Shown here one piece after another: positions 7,532-51,100 of a stretch of 56,305 bases of DNA (position 1 is the first letter of the stretch; each line of letters opens with the position of its first letter). A model generated the notes under the pieces. That model had not been told where the DNA came from. It did not search any database and was given only the letters and a program-made list of their open reading frames with translations. Source of the stretch: a virus. Lineage: Duplodnaviria > Caudoviricetes. Where the stretch lies: IMG/VR virus record IMGVR_UViG_3300028326_000005, positions 1 through 56,305 of that record. One strand, written 5' to 3'. The position numbers and the translations under genes were made by a program.

Positions 7532-7582
7532 AAAATTGCCGCCTTGTACCGGATGGCGCCAGGAAAGGAGCATGAAAAACGG

Positions 7583-10342
7583 ATGCTTGACTTCTTACGG
7601 GTTTCAACTCGAACCACCAAGCAGGGGACCGTTGAAATCTATCCCAAATTTGTTATCGATAATAAAAGCGACGATCTGATGATCCGGGGCGGTGATTTCT
7701 ACGCCGTCTGGGTGGAAGAAAAAAAGTTGTGGTCCACAGAAGAGCAGGATGCGCTGCGAATGATCGATGAAGCGCTGGACGAATATGCAAAAAACAACGC
7801 AGATCGGTTCGACGGCAAATGTCATGTGCTGCACATGTGGGATGCGGAGACCGGTATGATTGACCGGTGGCACAAGTATTGCCAGAAACAGATGAGAGAT
7901 GCCTTCCATATTCTGGATGAAAAATTGATATTCTCCAATACCAAGACCCGCAAAAAAGATTACGCAAGCAAGAAGTTAAGCTATCCGCTCGAGGCTGGCG
8001 AACCGGTTGCTTGGAACCGTCTGATTGACGTGCTATATTCCAAAGAGGAACGCCACAAAATCGAATGGGCGATCGGATCAGTCGTGTCCGGAGAATCCTG
8101 TAAACTGCAAAAGTTCATGGTTTTCTATGGCGCGGCTGGAACTGGCAAATCTACAGTGCTTAACATCATTGGTCAATTGTTTGACGGATATACCTCGGTT
8201 TTCGACGCCAAAGCACTTGGGTCATCCAACAACGCTTTTGCCCTTGAGGCGTTCCGTGGAAACCCACTGGTGGCGATTCAGCATGATGGTGATCTTAGCC
8301 ATATTGAAGATAATACTCGACTAAACAGTCTTGTTTCCCACGAAATCATGACCGTCAACGAAAAATTCAAATCAACGTATGCCAGCCGCTTTAAATGCTT
8401 TCTGTTTATGGGCACCAATAAGCCCGTAAAGATTACGGATGCAAAAAGCGGCTTGATCCGTCGTTTGGTGGATGTTTCTCCGACAGGTGAAAAACTGAGC
8501 CCGGGAGAGTACCGAACCACAATGAAACAGATCGGGTTTGAGCTTGGAGCAATTGCTAATCAGTGCATGGAGGTATATCTGGAGGACCCGGGAGCATATG
8601 ACGATTATATTCCAATCAACATGATTGGAGCGTCCAATGACTTCTACAACTTCATGATGGATGCGTGGTACGTATTTGCAAAGGAGGACGAAACCACCCT
8701 GAAGGCCGCGTGGGAAATGTACAAGACTTACTGCGATGACGCGAAGGTCGGGTATCCATATTCTCAGCGTGTGTTTAAGGAAGAGCTTAAAAACTACTTC
8801 GTGGACTATCAGGAAAGAATTACTCTTGCGGACGGCACCCGGATCCGAAATCACTATCAGGGTTTCCGTAAGGATAAGTTCGAGGAGGAGGACGTTCCGC
8901 CAGCCGGAGAAAAGAGTTCACCAACTCCTGAAACAAAGGCGGCATCGCCATTTCTGACACTGATACCGCAGCCTTCGATATTCGACCGGGATTGTGCGGA
9001 CTGCCCGGCGCAGTACACTTCCGACAAGGAGACGCCGATCGCCAAATGGGGCAATGTGACCGGCACCTTGAAGGAGTTGGACACAACCAGGCTGCACTAT
9101 GTGAAGGTACCGGAGAACCATATTGTGATCGACTTCGACATTCCGGACGAATTTGGAAACAAATGCCTGAACCGTAATCTGGAGGAAGCGGCTAAATGGC
9201 CACCTACCTATGCAGAGGTAAGCAAAGGCGGACAAGGGATACATCTGCATTATAACTATGCTGGTGACACCACCAAACTGAGCCGGATCTATGACGACCA
9301 CGTCGAAATTAAGGTTCCTGTTGGGAACAGCTCGTTACGACGAAAATTGACGCTATGTAACAACCTGCCCATCGCAACCATCAGTTCCGGATTGCCGCTG
9401 AAAGGAGAGGAGAGCAAAACGGTCGACTTTGAAGGAATCAAGAACGAAAAGGCGCTTCGCACCCTGATCAAACGAAACCTGAACAAAGAGTATCATGCTT
9501 ATACCAAACCGAGCGTGGACTTTATTTATGACACCCTGGAAAAGATGTACCAGAGCAAGACACCATATGACGTGACTGACATGCGCAACGCGATTCTCAG
9601 TTTTGCGGCAGGCAGCACCCATAATGCGGATGCCTGCATCAAACGGGTAAACCGAATGAAGTTCAAATCGGAGGAACCTTCCGCCAACCGCGAGGAACCG
9701 AATGAGAAACTGATTTTCTACGACGTGGAAGTGTTCCCCAACCTTTTCCTTATCAATTGGAAACTAGCGGGGGAAGGAAACCCGGTCATTCGGATGATCA
9801 ACCCGAAGCCCGTCGAGGTGGAGGAACTGATGCGGCATCGGCTGGTCGGATTTAACTGCCGGCGGTACGATAACCATATTCTTTATGCCTGTCTGATGGG
9901 GTATACAAATGAAATGTTATACGACCTGAGCCAGAAGATTGTAAGCGGAAACAGCGCGAACTGCTTTTTCAGCGAGGCTTACAACGCAAGTTATACGGAT
10001 GTATACGACTTTGCGTCGGCTGGAAACAAAAAAAGTCTGAAAAAGTTTGAGATCGAGCTGGGCATTCACCATCAGGAACTCGGACTGCCCTGGGATCAGC
10101 CGGTGCCGGAAGAACTGTGGATGAAGGTCGCCGAATACTGTGACAACGATGTTATCGCGACCGAAGCAGTGTTCAATTACCTGTCGGCAGACTGGACCGC
10201 AAGGCAGATTCTGGCGGATGTGGCCGGAATGACAGTGAATGACACGACCAACAGCCTGACCACGAGAATCATATTTGGGAACGACCGGAAACCGCAGGGC
10301 CAGTTCAATTACCGGAATCTGGCGTTGCCGGTATCTAGCTGA
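7583..10342 (+). CDS. SF3 helicase - primase(-polymerase) - 3'-5' exonuclease fusion (N-terminal part of the replicase)
   Basis: Walker A GAAGTGKST and FMGTN; prim-pol VIDFD...GIHLHY; exonuclease motifs FYDVEVF, GFNCRRYD, YCDNDV. Confidence 0.88.
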   Translation: MLDFLRVSTRTTKQGTVEIYPKFVIDNKSDDLMIRGGDFYAVWVEEKKLWSTEEQDALRMIDEALDEYAKNNADRFDGKCHVLHMWDAETGMIDRWHKYCQKQMRDAFHILDEKLIFSNTKTRKKDYASKKLSYPLEAGEPVAWNRLIDVLYSKEERHKIEWAIGSVVSGESCKLQKFMVFYGAAGTGKSTVLNIIGQLFDGYTSVFDAKALGSSNNAFALEAFRGNPLVAIQHDGDLSHIEDNTRLNSLVSHEIMTVNEKFKSTYASRFKCFLFMGTNKPVKITDAKSGLIRRLVDVSPTGEKLSPGEYRTTMKQIGFELGAIANQCMEVYLEDPGAYDDYIPINMIGASNDFYNFMMDAWYVFAKEDETTLKAAWEMYKTYCDDAKVGYPYSQRVFKEELKNYFVDYQERITLADGTRIRNHYQGFRKDKFEEEDVPPAGEKSSPTPETKAASPFLTLIPQPSIFDRDCADCPAQYTSDKETPIAKWGNVTGTLKELDTTRLHYVKVPENHIVIDFDIPDEFGNKCLNRNLEEAAKWPPTYAEVSKGGQGIHLHYNYAGDTTKLSRIYDDHVEIKVPVGNSSLRRKLTLCNNLPIATISSGLPLKGEESKTVDFEGIKNEKALRTLIKRNLNKEYHAYTKPSVDFIYDTLEKMYQSKTPYDVTDMRNAILSFAAGSTHNADACIKRVNRMKFKSEEPSANREEPNEKLIFYDVEVFPNLFLINWKLAGEGNPVIRMINPKPVEVEELMRHRLVGFNCRRYDNHILYACLMGYTNEMLYDLSQKIVSGNSANCFFSEAYNASYTDVYDFASAGNKKSLKKFEIELGIHHQELGLPWDQPVPEELWMKVAEYCDNDVIATEAVFNYLSADWTARQILADVAGMTVNDTTNSLTTRIIFGNDRKPQGQFNYRNLALPVSS

Positions 10343-10361
10343 CGGATAGGAGGATAAGTCT

Positions 10362-10598
10362 ATGGTCTACGCGGAAAAACAGAATGATACCTGCGAAACC
10401 TGTATGCACGATGCAATATGTGTGATGAAACCCATTTTTTGGGAACTGCGCAAACGGCGTAATGAAATGGCCAATCAAATTGCATTGTCATACCGAAGTT
10501 CATTTCCGGTTACCGTCCGTTGTGAACTGTACATGCCTCGAGAAACCAAAGTCTATCGTCAGGAAATGACGCTTATCCAAAACTTAAAGCAACAATAG
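10362..10598 (+). CDS. Small Cys-rich protein between the replicase halves
   Basis: AGGAGG RBS; CETCMHDAIC...C. Confidence 0.6.
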   Translation: MVYAEKQNDTCETCMHDAICVMKPIFWELRKRRNEMANQIALSYRSSFPVTVRCELYMPRETKVYRQEMTLIQNLKQQ

Positions 10599-10624
10599 CG
10601 CGAAATAAACAACGCCCTTTATGA
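10599..10624 (+). promoter_or_regulatory. Phage promoter-like motif copy 5
   Basis: CGCG AAATAAACAACGCCCTTT ATGA. Confidence 0.8.
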
Positions 10625-10649
10625 AGGTATTTCTATTTCATAAAGGAGG

Positions 10650-10925
10650 ATGACTATTATGGCTATGGAAAAACTGAATGAGAAAGACGAGAAGGCACTT
10701 TCATTTTACGAAGAAGTGAACGATCTTTATTACGACTGCTTGGTATCTGCAAAAAAAACAATTCTGTATATGACAGAATACGGTTTAAGTTTAAGGATGC
10801 TGAGTTTGTTGGCGAAGGCCGTTCGCCGGGCACGGAAATGCACGTGTTTGCGCAATAAGCTTATTCAGAAGTTTAAAGTGGTCGAAGAATACGACCGTCA
10901 ACTGGAAATGCAACAGACTGCCTGA
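10650..10925 (+). CDS. Hypothetical protein (cassette 5)
   Basis: AAAGGAGG RBS; lies between the motif and a terminator; true start may be a few codons later. Confidence 0.65.
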   Translation: MTIMAMEKLNEKDEKALSFYEEVNDLYYDCLVSAKKTILYMTEYGLSLRMLSLLAKAVRRARKCTCLRNKLIQKFKVVEEYDRQLEMQQTA

Positions 10926-10930
10926 CAATC

Positions 10931-10966
10931 GGAGGAGCTCTATACAAGGGCTCTTCCTTTATTTTT
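10931..10966 (+). terminator. Intrinsic terminator
   Basis: GGAGGAGCTC-TATACAA-GGGCTCTTCC then TTTATTTTT. Confidence 0.8.
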
Positions 10967-10985
10967 ATAAGTAAGGAGGGCACTG

Positions 10986-11060
10986 ATGAACGACAAAATA
11001 CTGCACGTCATGCTAATTGCCGTTTTTGAGCGGCTTCGTAAAAAACAGGAGGGCCAATGA
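10986..11060 (+). CDS. 24-aa peptide coupled (ATGA overlap) to the polymerase gene
   Basis: AAGGAGG RBS; MNDKILHVMLIAVFERLRKKQEGQ*; stop overlaps the polymerase start. Confidence 0.4.
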   Translation: MNDKILHVMLIAVFERLRKKQEGQ

Positions 11061-12334
11061 GAATATTTGATGAACTCGGGCAGCCGTTATACCGGGATTG
11101 GACAGGCGAAAAGCTGCCAGACGGATACAGCGTGCAGCCGTTCTTTCCAGGGTACACGTTCGAAGGCGGAAAATCCATATACCGCGGAGAAGAAGTCGGC
11201 GAAGGCGGGTATGTATATTCGGAACCTGGAATGTACGGAAATGTAGCGCTGTTGGACATTGCCAGCATGCATCCATCAAGCATCATAGCCGAGGATCTGT
11301 TTGGCCCGACCTATACTGCGCGGTTTGCGGACCTCAAAAAAGCCCGTATCGAAATCAAACATAAGAATTGGGATGTCGTCCGGGGTATGCTGGACGGAAA
11401 ACTGGAGAAATATATACAGAAGGTGCTCAACCATGAGATGACAGCCAAGCAACTCTCCAATGCCCTGAAAACAGCTATCAATTCTGTATACGGACTTACA
11501 AGTGCCAGCTTCGACAATCCATTCCATGACCCGCGCAACAAGGACAACATCGTTGCCAAACGCGGAGCGCTGTTCATGGTGAACCTTAAGCACGCGGTGC
11601 AGGAACAGGGTTTCCGGGTTGCCCATATCAAAACCGACTCGATCAAGATACCGGACGCCACACCCGAGATTATCAAGTTTGTAACCGATTACGGGAGGGA
11701 GTATGAGTACAACTTCGAACATGAAGCTACATACGACCGGATGTGTCTGGTAAACGACGCAGTATATGTGGCGAAGTACGCAACAGTAGAAAAATGTGAA
11801 GACCTGTACGGACGGGAGTATGTGCAAAGCAGCGACGATGTGCTGTCCGGATGCAAAGACCATCCGGGGGAATGGACTGCTACCGGAACCCAGTTCCAGA
11901 TTCCGTACGTGTTCAAAAAACTGTTCAGCCATGAGGAGATTGTGTTCGACGACCTGTGCGAGACCAAGAGTGTAACTTCCGCACTGTTCCTGAAGGGTGA
12001 GGATCCGGCGGACGACCCCGAGTTTATCGGACGCGTCGGCCGGTTCTGCCCAATCAAACCCGGATGCGGGGGAAAGGAACTGCTTCGGGAATCGCGGGAT
12101 AAAGACGGAAATGTAAAGTACGGGGCGGCCACCGGCACAAAAGGATATTTCTGGCTGGAAAGTGAGTTAGTAAAGAGTCTTGGAAAAGAGAACGACGTTG
12201 ACCAAAGCTACTATACCCGGTTGGTAGGCGAAGCAGTAAAGAGTCTGAGCGAACAGGGCGACTTTGAGTGGTTCGTGTCCGACGACCCCTATATTCCGGC
12301 AGCGCCTTCGGAGGATCGGGCACCCTGGGAATAA
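11057..12334 (+). CDS. Family-B-type DNA polymerase catalytic domain (C-terminal part of the replicase)
   Basis: Motif A LDIASMHPS, motif B KTAINSVYG, motif C HIKTDSI. Confidence 0.88.
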   Translation: MRIFDELGQPLYRDWTGEKLPDGYSVQPFFPGYTFEGGKSIYRGEEVGEGGYVYSEPGMYGNVALLDIASMHPSSIIAEDLFGPTYTARFADLKKARIEIKHKNWDVVRGMLDGKLEKYIQKVLNHEMTAKQLSNALKTAINSVYGLTSASFDNPFHDPRNKDNIVAKRGALFMVNLKHAVQEQGFRVAHIKTDSIKIPDATPEIIKFVTDYGREYEYNFEHEATYDRMCLVNDAVYVAKYATVEKCEDLYGREYVQSSDDVLSGCKDHPGEWTATGTQFQIPYVFKKLFSHEEIVFDDLCETKSVTSALFLKGEDPADDPEFIGRVGRFCPIKPGCGGKELLRESRDKDGNVKYGAATGTKGYFWLESELVKSLGKENDVDQSYYTRLVGEAVKSLSEQGDFEWFVSDDPYIPAAPSEDRAPWE

Positions 12335-12341
12335 GGGAATA

Positions 12342-12367
12342 CGCGAAAAATACCTCTGCTATTATGG
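12342..12367 (+). promoter_or_regulatory. Phage promoter-like motif copy 6
   Basis: CGCG AAAAATACCTCTGCTATT ATGG. Confidence 0.8.
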
Positions 12368-13579: not shown

Positions 13580-14497
13580 ATGACCGGAGATTTCAAACTT
13601 ACCAGTGAGTATCTTGAAAGTATCGGCGCCTGCGAAGAAGGGCGGACTGCATTTGCAAACCGTTTTCCGGATGGGGCCGGATATCAGGAAACGCTGAATG
13701 AATGCGCAAAAGAACACCGCGAAGATTTTGCAACGTGGCTATTTGGAAAAATCGGGAAGACTGCTGACACCCTAGTAATCTACGAGGAAATCCAAGATCC
13801 GGAGCGTTCCATCCTGTTTGCCGGAAGTATTACATTTAAAAAGCCAGCATTGCTCAAATGCGTAGTGGCCGGAGAGTTTATCAAGGCCAGAGGGTCTATC
13901 AAGGCCGGAGGGTCTATCAAGGCCGGAGGGTTTATCGAGGCCGGAGGGTCTATCAAGGCCGGAGGGTTTATCGAGGCCAGAGAGTTTATCAAGGCCGGAT
14001 GGTCTATCACGGCCGGAGAGTTTATCAAAGCCGAAGAGTTTATCAAGGCCGAAGAGTTTATCAAGGCCGAATGGTCTATCAAGGCCGGAGGGTTTATCGA
14101 GGCCGGAGAGTTTATCGAGGCCGGAGAGTTTATCAAGGCCAGAGGGTCTATCAAGGCCGAATGGTCTATCAAGGCCGGAGGGTTTATCGAGGCCGGAGAG
14201 TTTATCGAGGCCGGATGGTCTATCAAGGCCGAATGGTCTATCAAGGCCGGAGGGTCTATCAAGGCCGGAGAGTTTATCGAGGCCGGATGGTCTATCACGG
14301 CCGGAGGGTTTATCGAGGCCGGAGGGTTTATCAAGGCCGGAGAGTTTATCAAGGCCGGAGGGTCTATCGAGGCCGGAGAGGATTATGGAATATTTGCAGG
14401 TCTGCAAGTAAAAATCAGTGATTGGAAAATCAACGCAATGGTTGTCGCAACTGAAAAACCAAAAAATCTGATTAGCGGATACTGGAAAGAACGTTAA
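13580..14497 (+). CDS. Hexapeptide-repeat (beta-solenoid-like) protein
   Basis: AAGGAGG RBS; 28 x I[KET]A[GER][GEW][FS] flanked by unique domains. Confidence 0.8.
   Translation: MTGDFKLTSEYLESIGACEEGRTAFANRFPDGAGYQETLNECAKEHREDFATWLFGKIGKTADTLVIYEEIQDPERSILFAGSITFKKPALLKCVVAGEFIKARGSIKAGGSIKAGGFIEAGGSIKAGGFIEAREFIKAGWSITAGEFIKAEEFIKAEEFIKAEWSIKAGGFIEAGEFIEAGEFIKARGSIKAEWSIKAGGFIEAGEFIEAGWSIKAEWSIKAGGSIKAGEFIEAGWSITAGGFIEAGGFIKAGEFIKAGGSIEAGEDYGIFAGLQVKISDWKINAMVVATEKPKNLISGYWKER
13880..14383 (+). repeat. 28 tandem 18-bp repeats
   Basis: Unit ATC-(AAG/GAG/ACG)-GCC-(GGA/GAA/AGA)-(GGG/GAG/TGG)-(TTT/TCT). Confidence 0.95.
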
Positions 14498-37856: not shown

Positions 37857-38234
37857 GTGATTCGATTTAAGCATATGGGAAGTTTTAAACATATAGAAAA
37901 ATTCTTCGCCAAGGCGACCAAAGAAGATTACCTGCAGATGCTGGCAAGATTGGGTCAGGAGGGTGTGAATGCTCTTGCCTCGGCAACACCGACAGATACG
38001 GGGAAAACTGCAAATTCCTGGAACTATGAGATCGTGACCGATAACGGCAGGACTTCAATTTTTTGGACAAACTCGAACATAAACGACGGCGTGAACATCG
38101 CCGTTATTTTACAATATGGGCACGGAACCGGAACCGGTGGATACGTGCAGGGGATTGATTACATTAACCCGGCCATTCGACCGGTTTTTGATAAGATCGC
38201 CCAAGAGGCGTGGAAAGGGGTGACGACTTCGTGA
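37857..38234 (+). CDS. HK97 gp10-like tail component
   Basis: ATPTDTGKTANSW...LQYGHGT...YINPAIRP. Confidence 0.75.
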   Translation: MIRFKHMGSFKHIEKFFAKATKEDYLQMLARLGQEGVNALASATPTDTGKTANSWNYEIVTDNGRTSIFWTNSNINDGVNIAVILQYGHGTGTGGYVQGIDYINPAIRPVFDKIAQEAWKGVTTS

Positions 38235-41200
38235 GCAGCGTTGATACCCGGGTTGTTGAGATGCAATTTGACAACCAGCAGTTTGAAAAAGGGGTTCAGA
38301 CCAGCGTGAAATCACTGGACGACCTGAAAAAAGGACTGGATCTGGAAAAATCGGCCAAAGGCCTTTCCGCCCTCGAAAGCGCAGGAAGGTCGTTTTCCCT
38401 TGCCGGGGTCGCCAACAGTGTTTCGACCATTGAAGGCCGGTTTACATCGCTTGGCATCGTCGGAGTGACGGCACTTACAAACATCACAAACTCCGCGATC
38501 AATGCCGGAAAGCAGATGCTCAAATCGCTTACGATCGACCCGGTTTCTTCCGGATTCAGCAAATACGAGAAAGAAACCACTTCCGTGCAGGCGATTATGA
38601 ATGCGACGGGAGAAGGCGTTGATACCGTTGAGGGAAAAATTGAAAAACTCGGATGGTTTACGGACGAAACGAGTTACGATTATTCAACAATGGTTGATAC
38701 TCTTGGTAAATTTGTTGCCGCAGGATCCGGCCTTGACGAGTCTATTACCGCCATGGAAGGTATTGCGACCGCCGGCGCTTTGGCAGGCGTGTCCATAGAC
38801 AAGACAAGCATTGCCTATTACAACCTGGCGCAGGCAATGGCTGCCGGAAAAGTATCTGCCCTCGACTGGAGATCAATCGAACAAGCCGGAATGGCAACTA
38901 AAAAGTTTAAACAAGATGCGATTGATGCTGCGGTAGCAAGTGGCACGGTTATCGATCTTGGCGATGGAAATTATATTTCTTCTTCAGACAAAGCAACTGC
39001 CAACAAGACTAAGAACAAAAGCAAGAGAAATGACCAGATAAAGAAGAAATCGTTCACCGCAGATTCAATGGGCGACCATTTGGAAAGCGGATGGTTCGAT
39101 AAAAATGTTCTAATGACAACTCTGAATAAATACGGAGAATATGCTGATGCCGTTTACAAAGTTGTTCAAGAACAGAATGTAACCACGCAAGAGGCCATGG
39201 ACATTGTCGACAAGAATACGGAGCTTTGGGACGATCCTTTTAAAGCGGCACAGGAAGCCAAAACGTTTACCGATGCTGTTAACTCGGTAAAAGATGCGGT
39301 AAGCACTGGCTGGAAGGATACGTTTAAGGCTGTATTTGGAAATTACGAGGAAGCAAAGGTTTTATGGACCGATCTTGCCGGATATCTGCTTGATATTTTT
39401 GCGGAATCCGGGAATGAACGGAACAAGATGCTGAAAGAGTGGAAGGAACTTGGCGGAAGAAACGATTTAACAGACGCGTTCTATAACATTATGGACTCAT
39501 TGGAGAACATCATTGCAACTGTTAAAGGGGCCATCTCCGAGATATTTCCGCCAATGACGGCTAATGTTCTGAAAAGCATGACTGCCGGAATTGACGCATT
39601 TACCGTAAAGATCAAAGCTTTTACTGAAAATACCGACAAAATGGACAAGGTAAAGAGCATTTTCAAAGGCATTGCCGCTATAGTTGACAATGTCCGTATG
39701 GCGATTTCCTGGCTCTGGGACGGTTTTAAAAAACTGATCGGGATTGCGGCGCCCGCCGGAGGTTCTATTTTGGATCTGGCGGCGAAAGTTGGCGATTATC
39801 TTGTAGCGTTCCATGATGCGATTAAGACATCCAAAACCTTTCAGGATATTTTAACCACTGTCGGCAAAGTGATCGTTTCGGTTCGCGGGTTTGTGGTGCG
39901 CGCTGGGCAAGTGATTGGCAAAGTATTCGGCGATTTGTTTGAAAAACTGAAAAACACCGGGATTTTTAAAAAGATCGGTGACGGGGTAAACACCTTTTTA
40001 GGGAAGATTCCGCAGGCGATCGAAACCCTGGAACGATGGGGCAAAGCGGTAGTCGATTACGTTGCAAGCACCGGAATTTTGCAGAAAGCATGGCAGAAGA
40101 TCAAAGAGTTTGCCGGACCAGCGATTCAGAAGATCAAAGAGTTTGCGAAATGGTTTGGAACGGCATTAAGAGCATTTTTCAGCGCAGATACAAGCGGCAT
40201 CACTGGATTCTGGGAGAAACTGAAAGCCCGGTTTATGGCAATGGGAACTTCTTTTGCCGGGACATGGACTACCGTAAAAAAGAAAGTGACTGCCGTATGG
40301 GAGTCTATTAAAACTTTCTTTGCCAAACTGTTCGGGAAAAACGGGGACGCTGAGAAAGAACTTACAAATCAAAATGGTGTAAAAGTAGGCCTTCCAATCG
40401 ATACCTCCAACTGGTTCACGATATTACGGGAAAAAGTGGGAACTGTTTGGAGCGGAATCAAGGCCTATCTCAAGAACTTTTTCAGCAAGACAGTTCCCGA
40501 TTTTTTCACCAAGACCGTTCCGAACCTGATGAAAAGCATTCCGCAGGTGTTCGGCGGTCTTGTGGAGCAACTTAAGACCATTGACTGGGGAGCAGTGTTT
40601 AATACTGCAATGACTGTACTTGGTGGTATTGCAGTTTTATCGCTGGTGAAGAGCATCAGCAATATCGGCAAGGGATTTAAAAGCCTCAGTGGCCTTTTTG
40701 ACAATTTTGGAAAAGGAGCCAAGGCCGCTCAAAAGGGACTTGGAAAGTTTCTTGGCAACTTTGACAAGATCCTGAAGAGTTTTAACACTAAAACCATTGT
40801 GCATAAGGATAGTCTGGGCAATAACATACTGAAAATTGCCACGGCAATCGGCATACTGGTTGCAGCGATTATCGTGATTGGGAACACTGAAGACAGCAAG
40901 CTGCAAAAAGGGTTGACTGTGCTGGGCATACTGGCCGTCGGTATGGTCGCTTTAGGCGTTGCGTTTAAGAAACTAGGTCCGGAGGACAGTAAAGGGATTT
41001 TACAGGCGGCAGCGGCACTTGCACTATTGACAAGACCAGTAATGATTCTCGGTAACATGAAACTGGATAAGCTGATTCTCGGACTAGGTGCAGTCGGATT
41101 GCTGTTAACGTTTTTAGTGGCGTTTACACAGCAAGCCAAAGGCCTTGGGAAAAGCACCGGATTCGTCGCGATGGCCGTTGCCCTGAACCTGCTGACTATT

Positions 41201-44200
41201 CCGATTAAAATTCTTGGCAGCATGGACTTTGACAAACTTGTTCTCGGACTAGGTGCGGTCGGGTTACTGTTGACCATGTTAACAATGTTTACGCAACAAG
41301 CCAAAGGCCTCGGGAAGAGCACCGGATTCATCGCGATGGCGGTTGCCCTGAACCTGCTGATTATCCCGATTAAAATTCTTGGCAGCATGGACTTTGACAA
41401 ACTTGTTCTCGGACTAGGTGCAGTCGGATTGCTGCTAACGTTTTTAGTAGCGTTTACACAGCAAGCCAAAGGTCTTGGCAAAAGCACCGGATTCATCGCG
41501 ATGGCCGTTGCCCTGAACCTGCTGATTATCCCGATTAAGATTCTTGGCAGCATGGACTTTGACAAACTTGCACTTGGAATGGGAGCAATCGGTGTACTAC
41601 TGCTTGGTCTAAGCCTATTTTGTAAGAAAACTAAAACACTTGGAAAAAGCACGGGGTTGATTGCTATGGCCGTCGCCCTGAATCTGCTGGTTATTCCGAT
41701 TAAAACCCTCGGCAAGATGAAACCGACAGATCTGGCTAAAGGCGTTGGGGCAATTTCCGCGCTGCTTGTTATTATGGGCGTGTTCAACAAATTGTCCGGC
41801 ACCGGAAACCTGCAATCTGCCAGTGCGCAAATCGTAAGTATGATCGGGATCGCCGGAGTCATTGTGATATTTGCGGAATCGCTGACTCTGATTAAAGGCA
41901 TACCCTGGCAATCGATCGCCGCGTTCAGCGTGGGAATCGTAGCAGTGGTAGGGGCGATGATTGCCTCGGCATTACTGCTAAAGGGCATTGACCCCATGTC
42001 AGCAACGAAGGCATCAGCGGCGCTCGCTATCCTCTCGGCAGGACTCGGCGCAGCCATTGAAGTACTGGCAGGATTTGTGGGAAACGCGGCTGAAGGGTTA
42101 TCCGGAAACGCGACGACAATCGTATCCAATCTACAAATATACAGTAACATGGCGGACAAGGTAAAATACGACGCCATTGGAAAGTCTATTACCGCCATTG
42201 AAAACCTAGCTGATATGATGGTAACGGTTGGCAGTAAGAACATCGGGAAGTTTGATGATTTCTCCAGCCAATTGACGTCACTTGGCGCAAGACTTTACCT
42301 GTTCAACCTTGGAATTTCTGGAATCGCCGCTGGAGGCGCGGACAACGCCGTCGCCATGGTGGATGACATCGACACCATCGGCAGTAAAATGGTGGAAATG
42401 CAGAAAAAGGGGTACGACCTGGACGCTATGGGTTCTGCGATCAGCACCTTCGGCGCAGACATGGAACTCTATGCGACGTCAATGAACGATGCTAACGGGT
42501 TGCTGAAAGATGACAAAGGCAAAAAGGTAGCCAGTGCAGACGATCTTACCGGCATGTTCACCGAAATGGCGAAGGTCGATCTTCCGCAGGAAACGATCAA
42601 CAGGATCGCCAAATACGGCGAAAATAACGGAGCCGGACTTCAAGGGTTTTCAGAAGGGTTAATCCAAATTGGGGACGCGGTTCAGGGGTACGCTGTCAGC
42701 ATCAAAGACATTTCTTTATTGGACGCTATCAAATCTGACATTGTCCTGGGGATGATTAACAACCTGCAAAACAATCTGCCTACTGTTGGAAATGAATTAT
42801 TCAGTTGGATCAACGGAAAACAGGAAACACTGGATGATTTTGCCACATCGCTGGTAACCCTCGGAGGAGGACTGACCGGATTAAACGACGGACTTAAAAA
42901 TTTCGACAATGATACGGCAATCGTGGTAACTGATACATTGGGTAAACTGATCGATGTACAGCAGAAACTTAAAATCCAGAACAGTCTGACAACATTTTTA
43001 GGTCCAAAAGGAGATCTCGGTGAGTTCGGAAACACCCTGAATGTGATGGGCGAGGGATTCCGACTTTATGTAGGAAGTTTGGAAGCATTCGCAAAAAACA
43101 CGGCAACTGTAAATAACGCGACAACTGCATTGCAGAAATTATCTGATGTACAAAACAGCCTTGCCAAATCTGGAGTCGGAGCACAATTAAATGGCGGAAG
43201 TCAGGATCTTGGCACATTTGGAGCCCAACTGAAGACACTTGGCGATAATTTTTATCTGTTCAGTGGAGCAATGGCCGGGGTAAAACTGCCGACGAACATG
43301 GCTGATATACAGACGGTGATTCAGAGTTTTGCGGACATCGCCGTGCAACTGAAGGATGTACCAAACGTTGGTTCCGGCACATACGACCTAAGTTCTCAGA
43401 TCGGTTGGTTTGGTGCGCATCTGAAAGATTTTTTCAGTAATGACAAAGGCATTGGGAACGTTACCGTAGACAACCAAAAGGTATTCGACATCATGACAAT
43501 GGTGGGCAACATCGCCGACATTGCAGTTAAATTGAACGGTATTACAGGCGGGATTGACTTCGACTTTCTGCAATCGGTACTGGACGGCGTCAACACACTG
43601 GTTATTCCTTCATTTGTGAGCGCCGGAGGCGATACGGCCAGTGTGTTTGTAGGCGGAATGGCGAATGGAATTCAAAATGGAACCAAAACGATTGCAACCG
43701 CGGCCAAAAACCTGGCCACCAACGGATGCGGCAATGCAAGGATGGCCTATCCCAACTGGTACACAACGGGACAATACCTGGCGCAGGGGCTGGGGAACGG
43801 CATATCCAGCATGGCGGGGCGTGTTCGAAACGCCGCCGTTAACGTCGCCGCCGGCGCCATACGATCCATCCAAATGACCTGGTCTGTACATTCCCCTTCC
43901 AAAGTCGGCAACGACCTGGGGATGTACTTTGACCTGGGTATTGCAGGAGGACTTGACGGTTACTCCAAAGTGGTGACACAAAGCGCAGCCGACGTTGGAA
44001 AGAACGCGACCGAATCCGCAAAGGCGATGCTTGGTAGTTTTACGGCGAATACCATCGACGGAATGGACACCGCGCCAACCATCCGCCCAGTTATCGACAT
44101 GAGCGATGTAACAAACGGCGTGAACACCATTAACGGATTGTTCAATGCCAACCGGTCACTAAACGCTGGGATCTTCACCGGCGCAACCTTTAACCGGAAC

Positions 44201-44422
44201 GCGGCAAAAATCAACATGGACGGGGGGAGACAGACAGGGACTGGCGACAACCGGGACGTGGTGAACGCGATCGGCACCCTTACCGCACGGTTTGATAACC
44301 TGAGCGATGCAGTGGCAAATATGAAACTGGTGCTGGATACAGGCACCCTGGTAGGACAAATGGGCGCAAAGATGGATAAACAACTGGGTGTACTGGCCGG
44401 AAGACGGGATCGGGGAAATTGA
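38231..44422 (+). CDS. Tape measure protein
   Basis: About 2060 aa, Ala/Gly-rich helical; RVVEMQFDN start, HSPSKV near the C-terminus; GTG 38231 overlaps the previous stop. Confidence 0.92.
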   Translation: MSSVDTRVVEMQFDNQQFEKGVQTSVKSLDDLKKGLDLEKSAKGLSALESAGRSFSLAGVANSVSTIEGRFTSLGIVGVTALTNITNSAINAGKQMLKSLTIDPVSSGFSKYEKETTSVQAIMNATGEGVDTVEGKIEKLGWFTDETSYDYSTMVDTLGKFVAAGSGLDESITAMEGIATAGALAGVSIDKTSIAYYNLAQAMAAGKVSALDWRSIEQAGMATKKFKQDAIDAAVASGTVIDLGDGNYISSSDKATANKTKNKSKRNDQIKKKSFTADSMGDHLESGWFDKNVLMTTLNKYGEYADAVYKVVQEQNVTTQEAMDIVDKNTELWDDPFKAAQEAKTFTDAVNSVKDAVSTGWKDTFKAVFGNYEEAKVLWTDLAGYLLDIFAESGNERNKMLKEWKELGGRNDLTDAFYNIMDSLENIIATVKGAISEIFPPMTANVLKSMTAGIDAFTVKIKAFTENTDKMDKVKSIFKGIAAIVDNVRMAISWLWDGFKKLIGIAAPAGGSILDLAAKVGDYLVAFHDAIKTSKTFQDILTTVGKVIVSVRGFVVRAGQVIGKVFGDLFEKLKNTGIFKKIGDGVNTFLGKIPQAIETLERWGKAVVDYVASTGILQKAWQKIKEFAGPAIQKIKEFAKWFGTALRAFFSADTSGITGFWEKLKARFMAMGTSFAGTWTTVKKKVTAVWESIKTFFAKLFGKNGDAEKELTNQNGVKVGLPIDTSNWFTILREKVGTVWSGIKAYLKNFFSKTVPDFFTKTVPNLMKSIPQVFGGLVEQLKTIDWGAVFNTAMTVLGGIAVLSLVKSISNIGKGFKSLSGLFDNFGKGAKAAQKGLGKFLGNFDKILKSFNTKTIVHKDSLGNNILKIATAIGILVAAIIVIGNTEDSKLQKGLTVLGILAVGMVALGVAFKKLGPEDSKGILQAAAALALLTRPVMILGNMKLDKLILGLGAVGLLLTFLVAFTQQAKGLGKSTGFVAMAVALNLLTIPIKILGSMDFDKLVLGLGAVGLLLTMLTMFTQQAKGLGKSTGFIAMAVALNLLIIPIKILGSMDFDKLVLGLGAVGLLLTFLVAFTQQAKGLGKSTGFIAMAVALNLLIIPIKILGSMDFDKLALGMGAIGVLLLGLSLFCKKTKTLGKSTGLIAMAVALNLLVIPIKTLGKMKPTDLAKGVGAISALLVIMGVFNKLSGTGNLQSASAQIVSMIGIAGVIVIFAESLTLIKGIPWQSIAAFSVGIVAVVGAMIASALLLKGIDPMSATKASAALAILSAGLGAAIEVLAGFVGNAAEGLSGNATTIVSNLQIYSNMADKVKYDAIGKSITAIENLADMMVTVGSKNIGKFDDFSSQLTSLGARLYLFNLGISGIAAGGADNAVAMVDDIDTIGSKMVEMQKKGYDLDAMGSAISTFGADMELYATSMNDANGLLKDDKGKKVASADDLTGMFTEMAKVDLPQETINRIAKYGENNGAGLQGFSEGLIQIGDAVQGYAVSIKDISLLDAIKSDIVLGMINNLQNNLPTVGNELFSWINGKQETLDDFATSLVTLGGGLTGLNDGLKNFDNDTAIVVTDTLGKLIDVQQKLKIQNSLTTFLGPKGDLGEFGNTLNVMGEGFRLYVGSLEAFAKNTATVNNATTALQKLSDVQNSLAKSGVGAQLNGGSQDLGTFGAQLKTLGDNFYLFSGAMAGVKLPTNMADIQTVIQSFADIAVQLKDVPNVGSGTYDLSSQIGWFGAHLKDFFSNDKGIGNVTVDNQKVFDIMTMVGNIADIAVKLNGITGGIDFDFLQSVLDGVNTLVIPSFVSAGGDTASVFVGGMANGIQNGTKTIATAAKNLATNGCGNARMAYPNWYTTGQYLAQGLGNGISSMAGRVRNAAVNVAAGAIRSIQMTWSVHSPSKVGNDLGMYFDLGIAGGLDGYSKVVTQSAADVGKNATESAKAMLGSFTANTIDGMDTAPTIRPVIDMSDVTNGVNTINGLFNANRSLNAGIFTGATFNRNAAKINMDGGRQTGTGDNRDVVNAIGTLTARFDNLSDAVANMKLVLDTGTLVGQMGAKMDKQLGVLAGRRDRGN
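41045..41704 (+). repeat. Four tandem 165-bp (55-aa) repeats in the tape measure gene
   Basis: Units start at 41045, 41210, 41375 and 41540; ILGSMDFDKLVLGLGAVG...AVALNLLIIPIK. Confidence 0.9.
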
Positions 44423-49388: not shown

Positions 49389-49646
49389 ATGAAGACATTA
49401 ACGGAATTAGGGGAAGCCATTATACAGGTTCGCGAAGCGATTAACCAACTGGAGGTGAAAGGGGTTAACAATGCAGGAATCGTTTTATTCTGTAACAAGA
49501 AATGCGACGAACTGGTAAAAGATATTAACGAAGCCGTTAAAACGGCTCCTCCGGGCAATATCGAACTGCACATCACGGAACAGCCACCTGAGGAAAATCA
49601 AACTGGAGAGCCGAACCCCGCAACAACCGGGAACCGAGGTAGTTGA
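49389..49646 (+). CDS. Small tail-region protein
   Basis: AAAGGAG RBS; helical. Confidence 0.6.
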   Translation: MKTLTELGEAIIQVREAINQLEVKGVNNAGIVLFCNKKCDELVKDINEAVKTAPPGNIELHITEQPPEENQTGEPNPATTGNRGS

Positions 49647-51100
49647 CCATGATGACCATTGCCCAGATACTTGACGCATTACGGAATGCGATCTATGGGG
49701 AAGAAGTCCGTACCGCCATCGTGGATGGCATCAGCCAATGTTATTCGGATGTGTCCGCTTCTAAAGCGTTAGCCGATACAGCCGCCGCCAATGCAGACAC
49801 AAAGGCGGCTTTAGCCGACACCGCCGCCGCCAACGCCAACGCAAAAGCCACACTGGCCAACGATAAGGCGACTTTAGCGGATACTGCTGCCACCAACGCA
49901 AATACAGCCGCCACAAACGCCAACACAAAAGCCACGCTGGCCAACGACAAAGCGACATTAGCGGATACTGCTGTTGCCGCCGCAAATACAGCCGCTGCCA
50001 ACGCCAACACCAAAGCGACGCTGGCCAACGATAAAGCGGCACTGGCCGATACCGCCGCCGCCAACGCCAACACCAAGGCGACACTGGCAAACGACAAGGC
50101 GACGTTGGCTGATGCGGCTGCTACTGCCGCGAACACTGCCGCAACGTTAGCAAATGACAAAGCAGCGTTAGCCGATACCGCCGCTGCGAATGCCACCGCA
50201 AAAGCGACGTTAGCCGATACTGCCGCCGCCAACGCCAATGACAAGGTGCAGGGTTGTACGGCTGCCGCGCAGGACGCGACTAACGCCGCTTCGGCCGCCG
50301 AACATGCGGCGCAAAAAGCAGATGATATTACAACCAGCCTTGAAGATATGACGATTACCTCCGAGTCTGGAGGACCCTATGCGGATGCATCGGCTCTTTT
50401 AACAACGGTGGACGGGCATAAGAACATTCACTTTGTGTTAAAACAGGGGGAACAGGGCGACCCGTTCAAGGTTATTGGCATGGCATATCCGACGCTTGAA
50501 GTTTTGCAAGCCACGATTACGATGCCTCTTGTTGGGGATCAGTATAATGTAGGACAAATTCCACCGTATACTATATATCGTTGGACTGGAACTACAAAAG
50601 GATGGGAAAGTCAGGGTGTGGTGCAAGGACCGCAGGGCATCCAGGGCGAACGGGGCATTCAGGGTCTTCCTGGTGAAAACGGCGACACCGGACCGAATGC
50701 CGTTACTGAAGCGACGACAACAAATATTGATGGCCTTTTAAAAGGAAATGGCACTGTTTTACGGGCAGTTCCAGGAGTCGACTATCCTAAAATGGTAAAG
50801 ATATGGGAAGGCACTTGGAGTTCCGGAGCAATCACCGTTGCTAACATTAACAACTATGCCTTATTTATTGTACATATTGGTGCTGTGTTTATGCTAGTAT
50901 CTCGTATTGGCACTTATTTCAGAGGTGGCACGCTATACAATAGCAACAATACGGCTATCTCTTATTTTTTAAGTGCGACAATCAGCGGAACGACTTTGAC
51001 ACTTGAGAATTGCAGTTCTATATCGCACATGTCTAATGGAAATCACGGATATAATGCTGGACAATCAGTGTCGGAGATATTTGGTTTTCTCCAATATTGA
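49643..51100 (+). CDS. Tail fibre/receptor-binding protein
   Basis: AIYGEEVRTAIVD head, Ala-rich heptads, collagen GPQGIQGERGIQGLPG, C-terminal beta domain. Confidence 0.75.
   Translation: MTMMTIAQILDALRNAIYGEEVRTAIVDGISQCYSDVSASKALADTAAANADTKAALADTAAANANAKATLANDKATLADTAATNANTAATNANTKATLANDKATLADTAVAAANTAAANANTKATLANDKAALADTAAANANTKATLANDKATLADAAATAANTAATLANDKAALADTAAANATAKATLADTAAANANDKVQGCTAAAQDATNAASAAEHAAQKADDITTSLEDMTITSESGGPYADASALLTTVDGHKNIHFVLKQGEQGDPFKVIGMAYPTLEVLQATITMPLVGDQYNVGQIPPYTIYRWTGTTKGWESQGVVQGPQGIQGERGIQGLPGENGDTGPNAVTEATTTNIDGLLKGNGTVLRAVPGVDYPKMVKIWEGTWSSGAITVANINNYALFIVHIGAVFMLVSRIGTYFRGGTLYNSNNTAISYFLSATISGTTLTLENCSSISHMSNGNHGYNAGQSVSEIFGFLQY
49770..50243 (+). repeat. 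Heptad-based repeats (ADTAAAN / ANTKATL / ANDKATL)
   Basis: Degenerate 21-bp units read from the translation and DNA. Confidence 0.8.

Follow-up and report, generated by a model that had tools for sequence, protein, structure and literature searches.

A probable two-subunit family-B replicase divided at the exonuclease–polymerase linker in a metagenome-assembled tailed phage

The virus record IMGVR_UViG_3300028326_000005 (Caudoviricetes; 56,305 bases), analysed over its full length and called the window below, carries two neighbouring open reading frames (ORFs) that together correspond to one DNA replicase: the N-half at 7583–10342 and the C-half at 11057–12334. The long ORFs of the window lie almost all on the plus strand, as do the features described here. 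We regard the pair, with a probability of about 0.8, as a natural two-subunit family-B replicase whose parts work together, rather than as a gene that has been disrupted. The earlier note on this DNA, made from the sequence alone, had proposed such an enzyme, and its interpretation is now supported by the mapping of the break, the retention of the split in relatives, and the conservation of the catalytic residues.

In most relatives, the helicase, primase, proofreading exonuclease, and family-B polymerase form a single chain of about 1250–1470 residues. Here and in a diverged clade, the cut falls in the variable linker that separates the exonuclease from the polymerase core, so that subunit 1 (919 residues) retains the helicase, primase, and exonuclease, and subunit 2 (425 residues) retains the whole polymerase core. 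The tail of subunit 1 (RIIFG...NLALPV) would interlock with the N-terminal arm of subunit 2 (RIFD..GQP...PFFPGY) to give the normal shape of a family-B polymerase. Small genes that vary between phages occupy the space opened by the cut; here it contains ORF78, a promoter-like motif, ORF91, and a terminator. A short leader ORF, whose stop codon overlaps the start codon of subunit 2, probably couples the translation of subunit 2 to its own.

Domain organization of the two ORFs

The N-half encodes a superfamily 3 (SF3)/DUF5906 helicase and a primase, followed by a 3'-5' exonuclease domain of the family-B polymerase type, and its C-terminus reads ...NYRNLALPVSS*. An in-frame TTG is present upstream at 7544; however, the ATG at 7583 is the likely start because the database copy of the protein (P0121) and its relatives begin there. 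A Walker A motif is located at 8129–8155. An archaeo-eukaryotic primase (AEP)-type DxD motif (9125–9145) and a GxGxH primase motif (9227–9253) were recognised by eye and are named by no tool. The three exonuclease motifs follow at 9716–9742 (Exo I), 9857–9883 (Exo II), and 10136–10165 (Exo III), and the C-terminal tail, RIIFG...NYRNLALPVSS (10265–10339), is the predicted docking element for the polymerase half. The C-half comprises a family-B polymerase core with palm, fingers, and thumb, in which motif A (LLDIASMHPSS, 11249–11281), motif B (KTAINSVYG, 11468–11500), and motif C (KTDS, 11624–11650) are found. All of these elements are present where the earlier note had placed them, with the helicase, primase, and exonuclease motifs in the ORF ending at 10342 and motifs A–C in the ORF starting at 11057.

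The two ORFs match successive parts of one protein family, PHROG 4210 ('DNA polymerase', 1304 positions). The N-half covers positions 1–922 (E 0, 1373 bits) and the C-half covers positions 921–1294 (E 5e-162). They jointly span a single family end to end; therefore, their pairing is beyond chance. The N-half also matches Pfam DUF5906 and the P4-type primase C-terminal domain, and a profile of split-type C-halves matches residues 403–552 of Escherichia coli Pol II, which include its motifs A–C (E 4e-6). The structural model of the C-half has a predicted local distance difference test score (pLDDT) of 76 and gave 200 Protein Data Bank (PDB) matches at E ≤0.001, the best at 8.7e-9; all 45 PDB rows printed for it are family-B polymerases. 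The exonuclease region was modelled with a pLDDT of 85, and its best PDB matches are also family-B polymerases, although they are weak (E 5e-3, template modelling score about 0.4). A PDB search with the exonuclease region as a single sequence gave nothing useful.

The catalytic residues are intact in both halves, which supports the view of the earlier note that both halves look intact. Asp42, Glu44, Asp91, Tyr180, and Asp184, which belong to the Exo I (DxE), Exo II (Nx2-3[FY]D), and Exo III (Yx3D) motifs, are invariant in all 26 aligned exonuclease domains, and the residues of motifs A–C are invariant in all 17 split-type C-halves. Exo I–III, motifs A (DxxSLYPS-like), B (KxxxNSxYG), and C (DTDS), and the palm-fingers-thumb fold that mark a family-B polymerase are all found. 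The usual one-chain form of exonuclease and polymerase is not; it is interrupted by the stop at 10342, the start at 11057, and three ORFs between them.

Position of the break

In fused relatives, Exo III is followed by RIIFG...FNYRN(L/M)..., a variable linker, ...(I/V)FD..G(R/Q)P...FPGY, and then motif A. The N-half of the window ends two residues past LALPV, and the C-half begins one residue ahead of Arg-Ile-Phe. In the fused loci L202, L112, L136, and L234, a window-type tail and a window-type head are joined by about 18 residues (NLALPV-GPEQYEEYREKFGPDYKF-RVFNDEGQP), and the same arrangement is found in the proteins P0078 and P0099. Alignment thus supports the placement of the break in the linker between Exo III and motif A, upstream of motif A, which is the variable linker that the earlier note had suspected.

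Intein segments, which would be about 100 residues at the end of the N-part and about 35 residues at the start of the C-part, were not found; there are no extra residues on either side. Both half ends fall inside a linker that is continuous in the fused loci. A first alignment had suggested a target-site duplication of about 20 codons repeated on both sides of the gap. This candidate was rejected because, in closer fused relatives, the tail and the head are successive parts of the linker.

Two proteins, P0015 and P0087, carry unrelated N-terminal residues that join the polymerase just before Exo III, and they may mark interruptions inside the exonuclease domain.

Distribution of the split among relatives

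Relatives were collected in two locus sets, in which some contigs were fetched repeatedly; they contain 278 distinct polymerase cores. In the first set, 259 of 261 loci are fused and one is cut by a contig end. The remaining one, L261, carries a window-type C-half with other genes upstream. In the second set, 67 of 73 are fused, three are cut by contig ends, and the rest are L263, L271, and L297. L271 was discarded as a split locus, since it has a frameshift in an otherwise continuous gene at a contig end.

The cultured relatives are fused as well. Gp28 of Faecalibacterium phage FP_oengus, the nearest of them (identity of 63% for the N-half and 56% for the C-half), and the 'DNA primase/polymerase' proteins of actinophages share the PHROG 4210 family and the domain order. 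Unlike the window, they have one chain, as in FP_oengus gp28 (1337 residues) and Microbacterium phage Count gp75 (1311 residues). The statement in the earlier note that relatives encode one fused protein therefore holds for cultured and most uncultured relatives; however, the split is not unique to the window. The possibility, also raised there, that most homologues are split at the same place was not borne out, as the split ones are a minority.

Protein searches gave a consistent picture. The four best matches to the exonuclease region (P0121–P0124), namely the window's own protein and three relatives that are 80–89% identical, are 914–921 residues long and all stop two residues beyond LALPV. 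Below them, at 79% identity or less, come fused proteins of about 1300–1420 residues. Among 120 listed C-half-like proteins of 233–744 residues, 29 (60–89% identity) begin with M-x(0-4)-R/Y-[ILVM]-F..GQP, P0008 having been placed among them by eye; 78 include upstream exonuclease sequence, and 13 start elsewhere. Locus L263, whose N-half and C-half are 66% and 61% identical to those of the window, is cut at the same places. Its N-half stops at ...NYRDLALPVRA*, its C-half restarts with GTG (MNRIFNQYGQP), and the 474-nt gap holds a different ORF of 67 residues. No DNA similarity beyond short motifs was detected between the gap of the window and those of L263 and L261. On these sequences, the split is not a one-off and is common to a diverged clade. 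Pattern searches of DNA collections with the window C-half, P0001, and an alignment did not return the 80–89% identical relatives known as proteins, and megablast of the region against a phage collection gave no match.

At L261 1–1362, the C-half (TTG start, MRVFNEKGQP) stands after at least 1.3 kb of other genes, which include a helix-turn-helix-like ORF of 157 residues and a Lys/Glu-rich ORF of 232 residues; its N-half is not in view.

In a quick tree of polymerase cores from which the junction was excluded, 24 of the 32 split rows fall in one clade, with a Shimodaira–Hasegawa-like approximate likelihood ratio test (SH-aLRT) support of 88. A tree in which all 32 split rows form one clade has a log-likelihood 114.5 above that of the quick free tree (approximately unbiased test, p-AU 0.89). 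A single origin of the split is compatible with these data, although it is not proven by them.

L297 differs from the other split loci. Its FP_oengus-type gene is cut in the same linker (...RLVYTDLATGVQSEGR*), and the gap ORF, which begins 5 nt past the stop (L297 7346–7987), matches HNH_3, NUMOD4, and the I-HmuI NUMOD-like domain. Judged from these matches, an I-HmuI-like HNH endonuclease gene has split the linker of L297 independently of the window, which indicates that endonuclease insertion is one of the routes by which it is broken.

Fit of the two halves

The multimer modelling that the earlier note had suggested was performed with residues 600–932 of the N-half (counted from 7544) and the C-half. 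The interaction prediction score from aligned errors (ipSAE) was 0.77, whereas the best control gave 0.00; the three runs share at least 93% of their contacts, and the pLDDT of the partner is 88. For reference, 58 of 80 solved complexes and 2 of 110 mismatched pairs attained the same ipSAE mark. The predicted interface is formed by residues 902–932 of the N-half with residues 4–34 and 79–172 of the C-half. When the C-half was modelled alone, its residues 1–28 had a pLDDT below 50. The modelled complex passes its controls, and this pass indicates fit and not binding because the halves of a split gene resemble solved single-chain polymerases and so tend to pass.

The two products might also be separate enzymes. 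The N-half would then combine a helicase-primase with an independent proofreading nuclease, the C-half would be a free polymerase, and they would meet only at the replication fork. Separate proofreading subunits exist, such as epsilon of bacterial Pol III, and the C-half has a complete polymerase core with motifs A–C. However, both the N-half tail and the C-half arm show conservation, and together they make up a low-error predicted interface. The arm is predicted to be disordered when the C-half is modelled by itself, and the same segments are continuous in the fused forms. We consider separate enzymes unlikely.

Selection on the two halves

A recent insertion of foreign DNA could have broken the gene, leaving a phage that is defective or uses another polymerase and two halves that are decaying. 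Most relatives are indeed fused, and the cargo of the gap resembles inserted DNA of the moron type with its own promoter-like motif and terminator. Among the small numbers of strain variants counted (40 of 52), the N-half has 10 synonymous and 2 nonsynonymous variants and the C-half has 11 and 4, whereas ORF91 in the gap has 1 synonymous and 3 nonsynonymous variants, as decay would predict. Variants in both halves are mostly synonymous, and the relaxed selection that the earlier note had named as a possible refutation is not seen. In addition, the same split occurs in relatives that are just 60–66% identical, the catalytic residues are intact in the split C-halves and exonuclease domains described above, and near-identical phage DNA is present in sequencing runs from several studies. 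Runs containing the sequence of the window are labelled wastewater and bioreactor sludge. Decay of a recently broken gene is very unlikely in view of these observations.

Search for a joined product

If the gap were a self-splicing group I or group II intron, or were otherwise removed from the RNA, a single fused protein would result. Group I introns are classically found in phage DNA polymerase genes, and I-HmuI-like HNH endonucleases, such as the one encoded in the gap of L297, are of a type known among intron-encoded enzymes. Rfam, which is limited to described intron classes and does not reach introns outside them, gave no match at E ≤1 in 9800–11600 of the window. It gave none at the gathering score in L297, L263, and L261 and no intron family at E ≤10 in the gap of L297. 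No joints were found in contigs from four runs, three of DNA and one of RNA, the RNA covering only 10656–10921; contigs drop rare forms. In diverged relatives, the N-half ends and the C-half begins at the same respective residues as in the window, and the gap of the window has no DNA similarity beyond short motifs to those of L263 and L261. Finally, the gap ORFs have their own ribosome-binding sites, and one of them has homologues. An intron or another form of RNA removal is highly improbable, in agreement with the earlier note, which had ranked splicing low.

Integrity of the assembly

The window is a metagenome-assembled virus contig that is classed as linear, and end repeats were not found. 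Three runs from three different studies hold contigs across the junctions. In X1, one contig of 1684 nt spans 9600–11037 and further contigs cover 11008–11119. X5 has contigs at 10287–10618 and 10751–11150, and X6 has contigs at 10219–10369 and 10879–11131. The start at 11057 is bridged in X1, X5, and X6, and the stop at 10342 is also bridged in X5 and X6. Some parts of the window have no coverage in X6 and in the RNA run X16, from which no conclusion is drawn. Among the relatives, the partners P0122/P0001 and P0124/P0005 are on equal-sized contigs (12465 and 25906 bases, respectively), and these sizes suggest that each pair is located on one contig. A misassembled or chimeric junction, which the earlier note had listed as a risk, can be set aside as hardly conceivable.

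The N-half (P0121) and ORF91 (P0241, 10659–10925) of the window are also present on a contig of 103,162 bases, which may be a concatemer or an integrated copy on a host contig.

Contents of the gap

The gap between the two ORFs (10343–11056, 714 bp) contains the elements that the earlier note had listed, namely a small ORF, a promoter-like motif, a 91-residue ORF, a terminator, and a 24-residue peptide. Its description of the first ORF as Cys-rich was overstated, because that ORF has four Cys residues.

This ORF, ORF78 (10362–10598), is preceded by a GGAGGA ribosome-binding site 7 nt 5' of its start and encodes a small protein with four conserved Cys residues (CxxC-x5-C...C). Two true relatives of 67–70 residues were found among 1.84 billion representatives, and all four Cys residues are retained in the homologue P0243; P0244 was rejected as a spurious, repetitive match. 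In the protein atlas, ORF78 belongs to unnamed phage clusters only. It has 2 synonymous and 1 nonsynonymous strain variants and an in-frame insertion of 18 nt in the X1 and X5 strains.

ORF78 is followed by one of eight copies of a 30-nt promoter-like motif (10599–10628). The copies lie on the plus strand in one register, at places read as intergenic (45, 340, 1840, 3239, 10599, 12342, 22811, and 45715). The consensus is CGCGA(A/T)A, followed by an A/T-rich hexamer and ATG(G/A). The copy at 12342 is located directly 3' of the polymerase gene, and the fused relatives L003–L022 have a similar motif after their polymerase gene; in L263, the gap opens with a similar promoter-like motif, after the N-half stop. 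The 30-nt motif is probably the promoter type of this phage.

ORF91 (10650–10925) encodes an orphan small protein. Among 5.8 billion proteins, its own record and one 89% identical relative were the only matches. ORF78 and ORF91 have no match in Pfam, PHROG, or NCBIfam, and ORF24, described below, has none in Pfam, the sole library used for it. Behind ORF91 is a hairpin resembling an intrinsic terminator (10931–10967), with an 11-pair stem followed by a T-run (TTTATTTTTA); its 3' part belongs to a four-copy repeat family. The promoter-like motif at 10599, ORF91, and the terminator-like site would make up a moron-like unit, in which the promoter role is assigned from the sequence. A metatranscriptome contig (X16) covers 10656–10921, which lies within ORF91. 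It is a weak hint of transcription of ORF91 because such libraries can contain DNA.

ORF24 (10986–11060) is a leader ORF of 24 codons with a strong ribosome-binding site and has 1 synonymous and 2 nonsynonymous strain variants. Its TGA overlaps the ATG of the C-half (ATGA), and comparable overlaps are found in L263 (GTGA) and L261 (TTGA). The overlap of stop and start, together with the strong ribosome-binding site of the upstream ORF, suggests that translation of the C-half is coupled to ORF24 by termination-reinitiation.

Several points weigh against the two-subunit replicase as we have drawn it. The assembly of the two halves rests on the model and on conservation, and the variant counts come from low-depth contigs. 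The gap DNA compared is that of the window, L263, and L261, whereas the closest relatives (P0001/P0122, P0005/P0124, and P0123) are known as proteins. The other 8 of the 32 split rows are scattered among fused rows in the quick free tree, and recombination or several origins of the split are possible. The xTGA overlap partly follows from the second codon, which is AGA, AAC, or AGG, and it could be due to chance. Moreover, the terminator-like hairpin stands between the only recognised promoter-like motif of the gap and the start of the polymerase. Read-through of the terminator or an unrecognised promoter may possibly supply the polymerase mRNA.

A more far-reaching interpretation can be offered tentatively, and we would not expect it to hold in full. 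The linker may be a recurrent landing site of foreign DNA, and in one clade the split may have become a regulated two-subunit replicase. The polymerase would then be an exchangeable module with its own signals (the internal promoter-like motif, a leaky terminator, and leader-ORF coupling), and gap proteins such as the four-Cys ORF78 might act on the replicase or on the ratio of its subunits.

Comparison with other split polymerases

In T4-type phages, the cut reportedly falls within the polymerase part, whereas in the window it falls at the border between exonuclease and polymerase.

In the T4-related Aeromonas phages 44RR and 25, gene 43 is split into adjacent genes (43A and 43B) with an intercistronic insert (Petrov et al. 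2010, as described in PMC2988022). The products co-purify and are active, and the insert, which carries a homing endonuclease (seg) gene in one phage, varies between relatives (PMC2988022). These phages and the window are alike in having adjacent split family-B genes with a variable insert. However, 43A/43B belong to another polymerase lineage without the helicase-primase fusion present in the window. Unlike the endonuclease insert, the gap of the window holds small non-endonuclease ORFs, a promoter-like motif, and a terminator.

The DNAP-N and DNAP-C polypeptides of PhiKZ form a stable 1:1 family-B polymerase/exonuclease complex (PMC13648687, a 2026 preprint). The stability of this two-chain complex indicates that divided polymerases of this kind can be functional. 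In PhiKZ, the site of the cut is a palm insertion, so that motif A belongs to the N subunit and motif C to the C subunit, whereas all three motifs are on the C-half in the window. In addition, the PhiKZ genes are far apart (gp82 and gp50), whereas those of the window are separated by 714 bp.

A split DNA polymerase defines the group B magroviruses, alongside which cyanophage P-SSP7 and Methanobacterium thermoautotrophicum are cited (PMC5434244). The likeness to the window is that the split is a clade-defining trait among viral family-B polymerases that are otherwise unsplit. The splits of this group are within the catalytic domain and concern archaeal viruses and archaea; in contrast, the cut in the window is upstream of motif A and leaves the core whole.

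Free-standing homing endonucleases make genes in pieces, as mobE does in nrdA of phage Aeh1 and mobA in gene 60 of T4 (PMC2988022), and 'fractured genes' with split inteins have been described (PMC2677866). L297, with an HNH endonuclease gene in the linker, fits the mobE/mobA type. By analogy, the split of the window may have begun with an endonuclease insertion as in L297. Unlike the mobE/mobA type, the gap of the window holds no endonuclease by the library searches of its three ORFs given above, and, unlike 'fractured genes', its halves have no intein segments.

Split family-B polymerases are already in print; therefore, the finding is less surprising than the earlier note implied. A full-text literature search returned no account of a split in the PHROG 4210-type polymerase family. 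The window appears to present a long-lived natural case in which proofreading and polymerisation are on separate chains and the whole catalytic core is on one, whereas the published split family-B polymerases compared here are cut inside the polymerase part. The small polymerase core of 425 residues and its defined, predicted docking tail provide material for structural and engineering work. The case also bears on gene breakage and survival, since an HNH gene in L297 and other DNA here appear to have struck one flexible linker in separate events, after which the gap came to accommodate small genes. In annotations, both ORFs are better named as subunits of one replicase than as a truncated pseudogene.

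Additional observations

The fused relatives L104, L122, and L126 are found in the cultured Clostridia Clostridium leptum DSM 753, Hungatella hathewayi DSM 13479, and Ruminococcus torques ATCC 27756. These are scaffolds or chromosomes of cultured bacteria; therefore, the family includes prophages.

Repeats are present in three other ORFs of the window. At 13777–14478, 26 head-to-tail units of 18 nt lie in an ORF of 305 residues (13580–14497), which would encode a hexapeptide-repeat protein. Repeats with a period of 21/42 nt are located at 49765–50238 in an ORF of 485 residues (49643–51100), and four 165-nt repeats are located at 41045–41719 in an ORF of 2070 residues (38210–44422).

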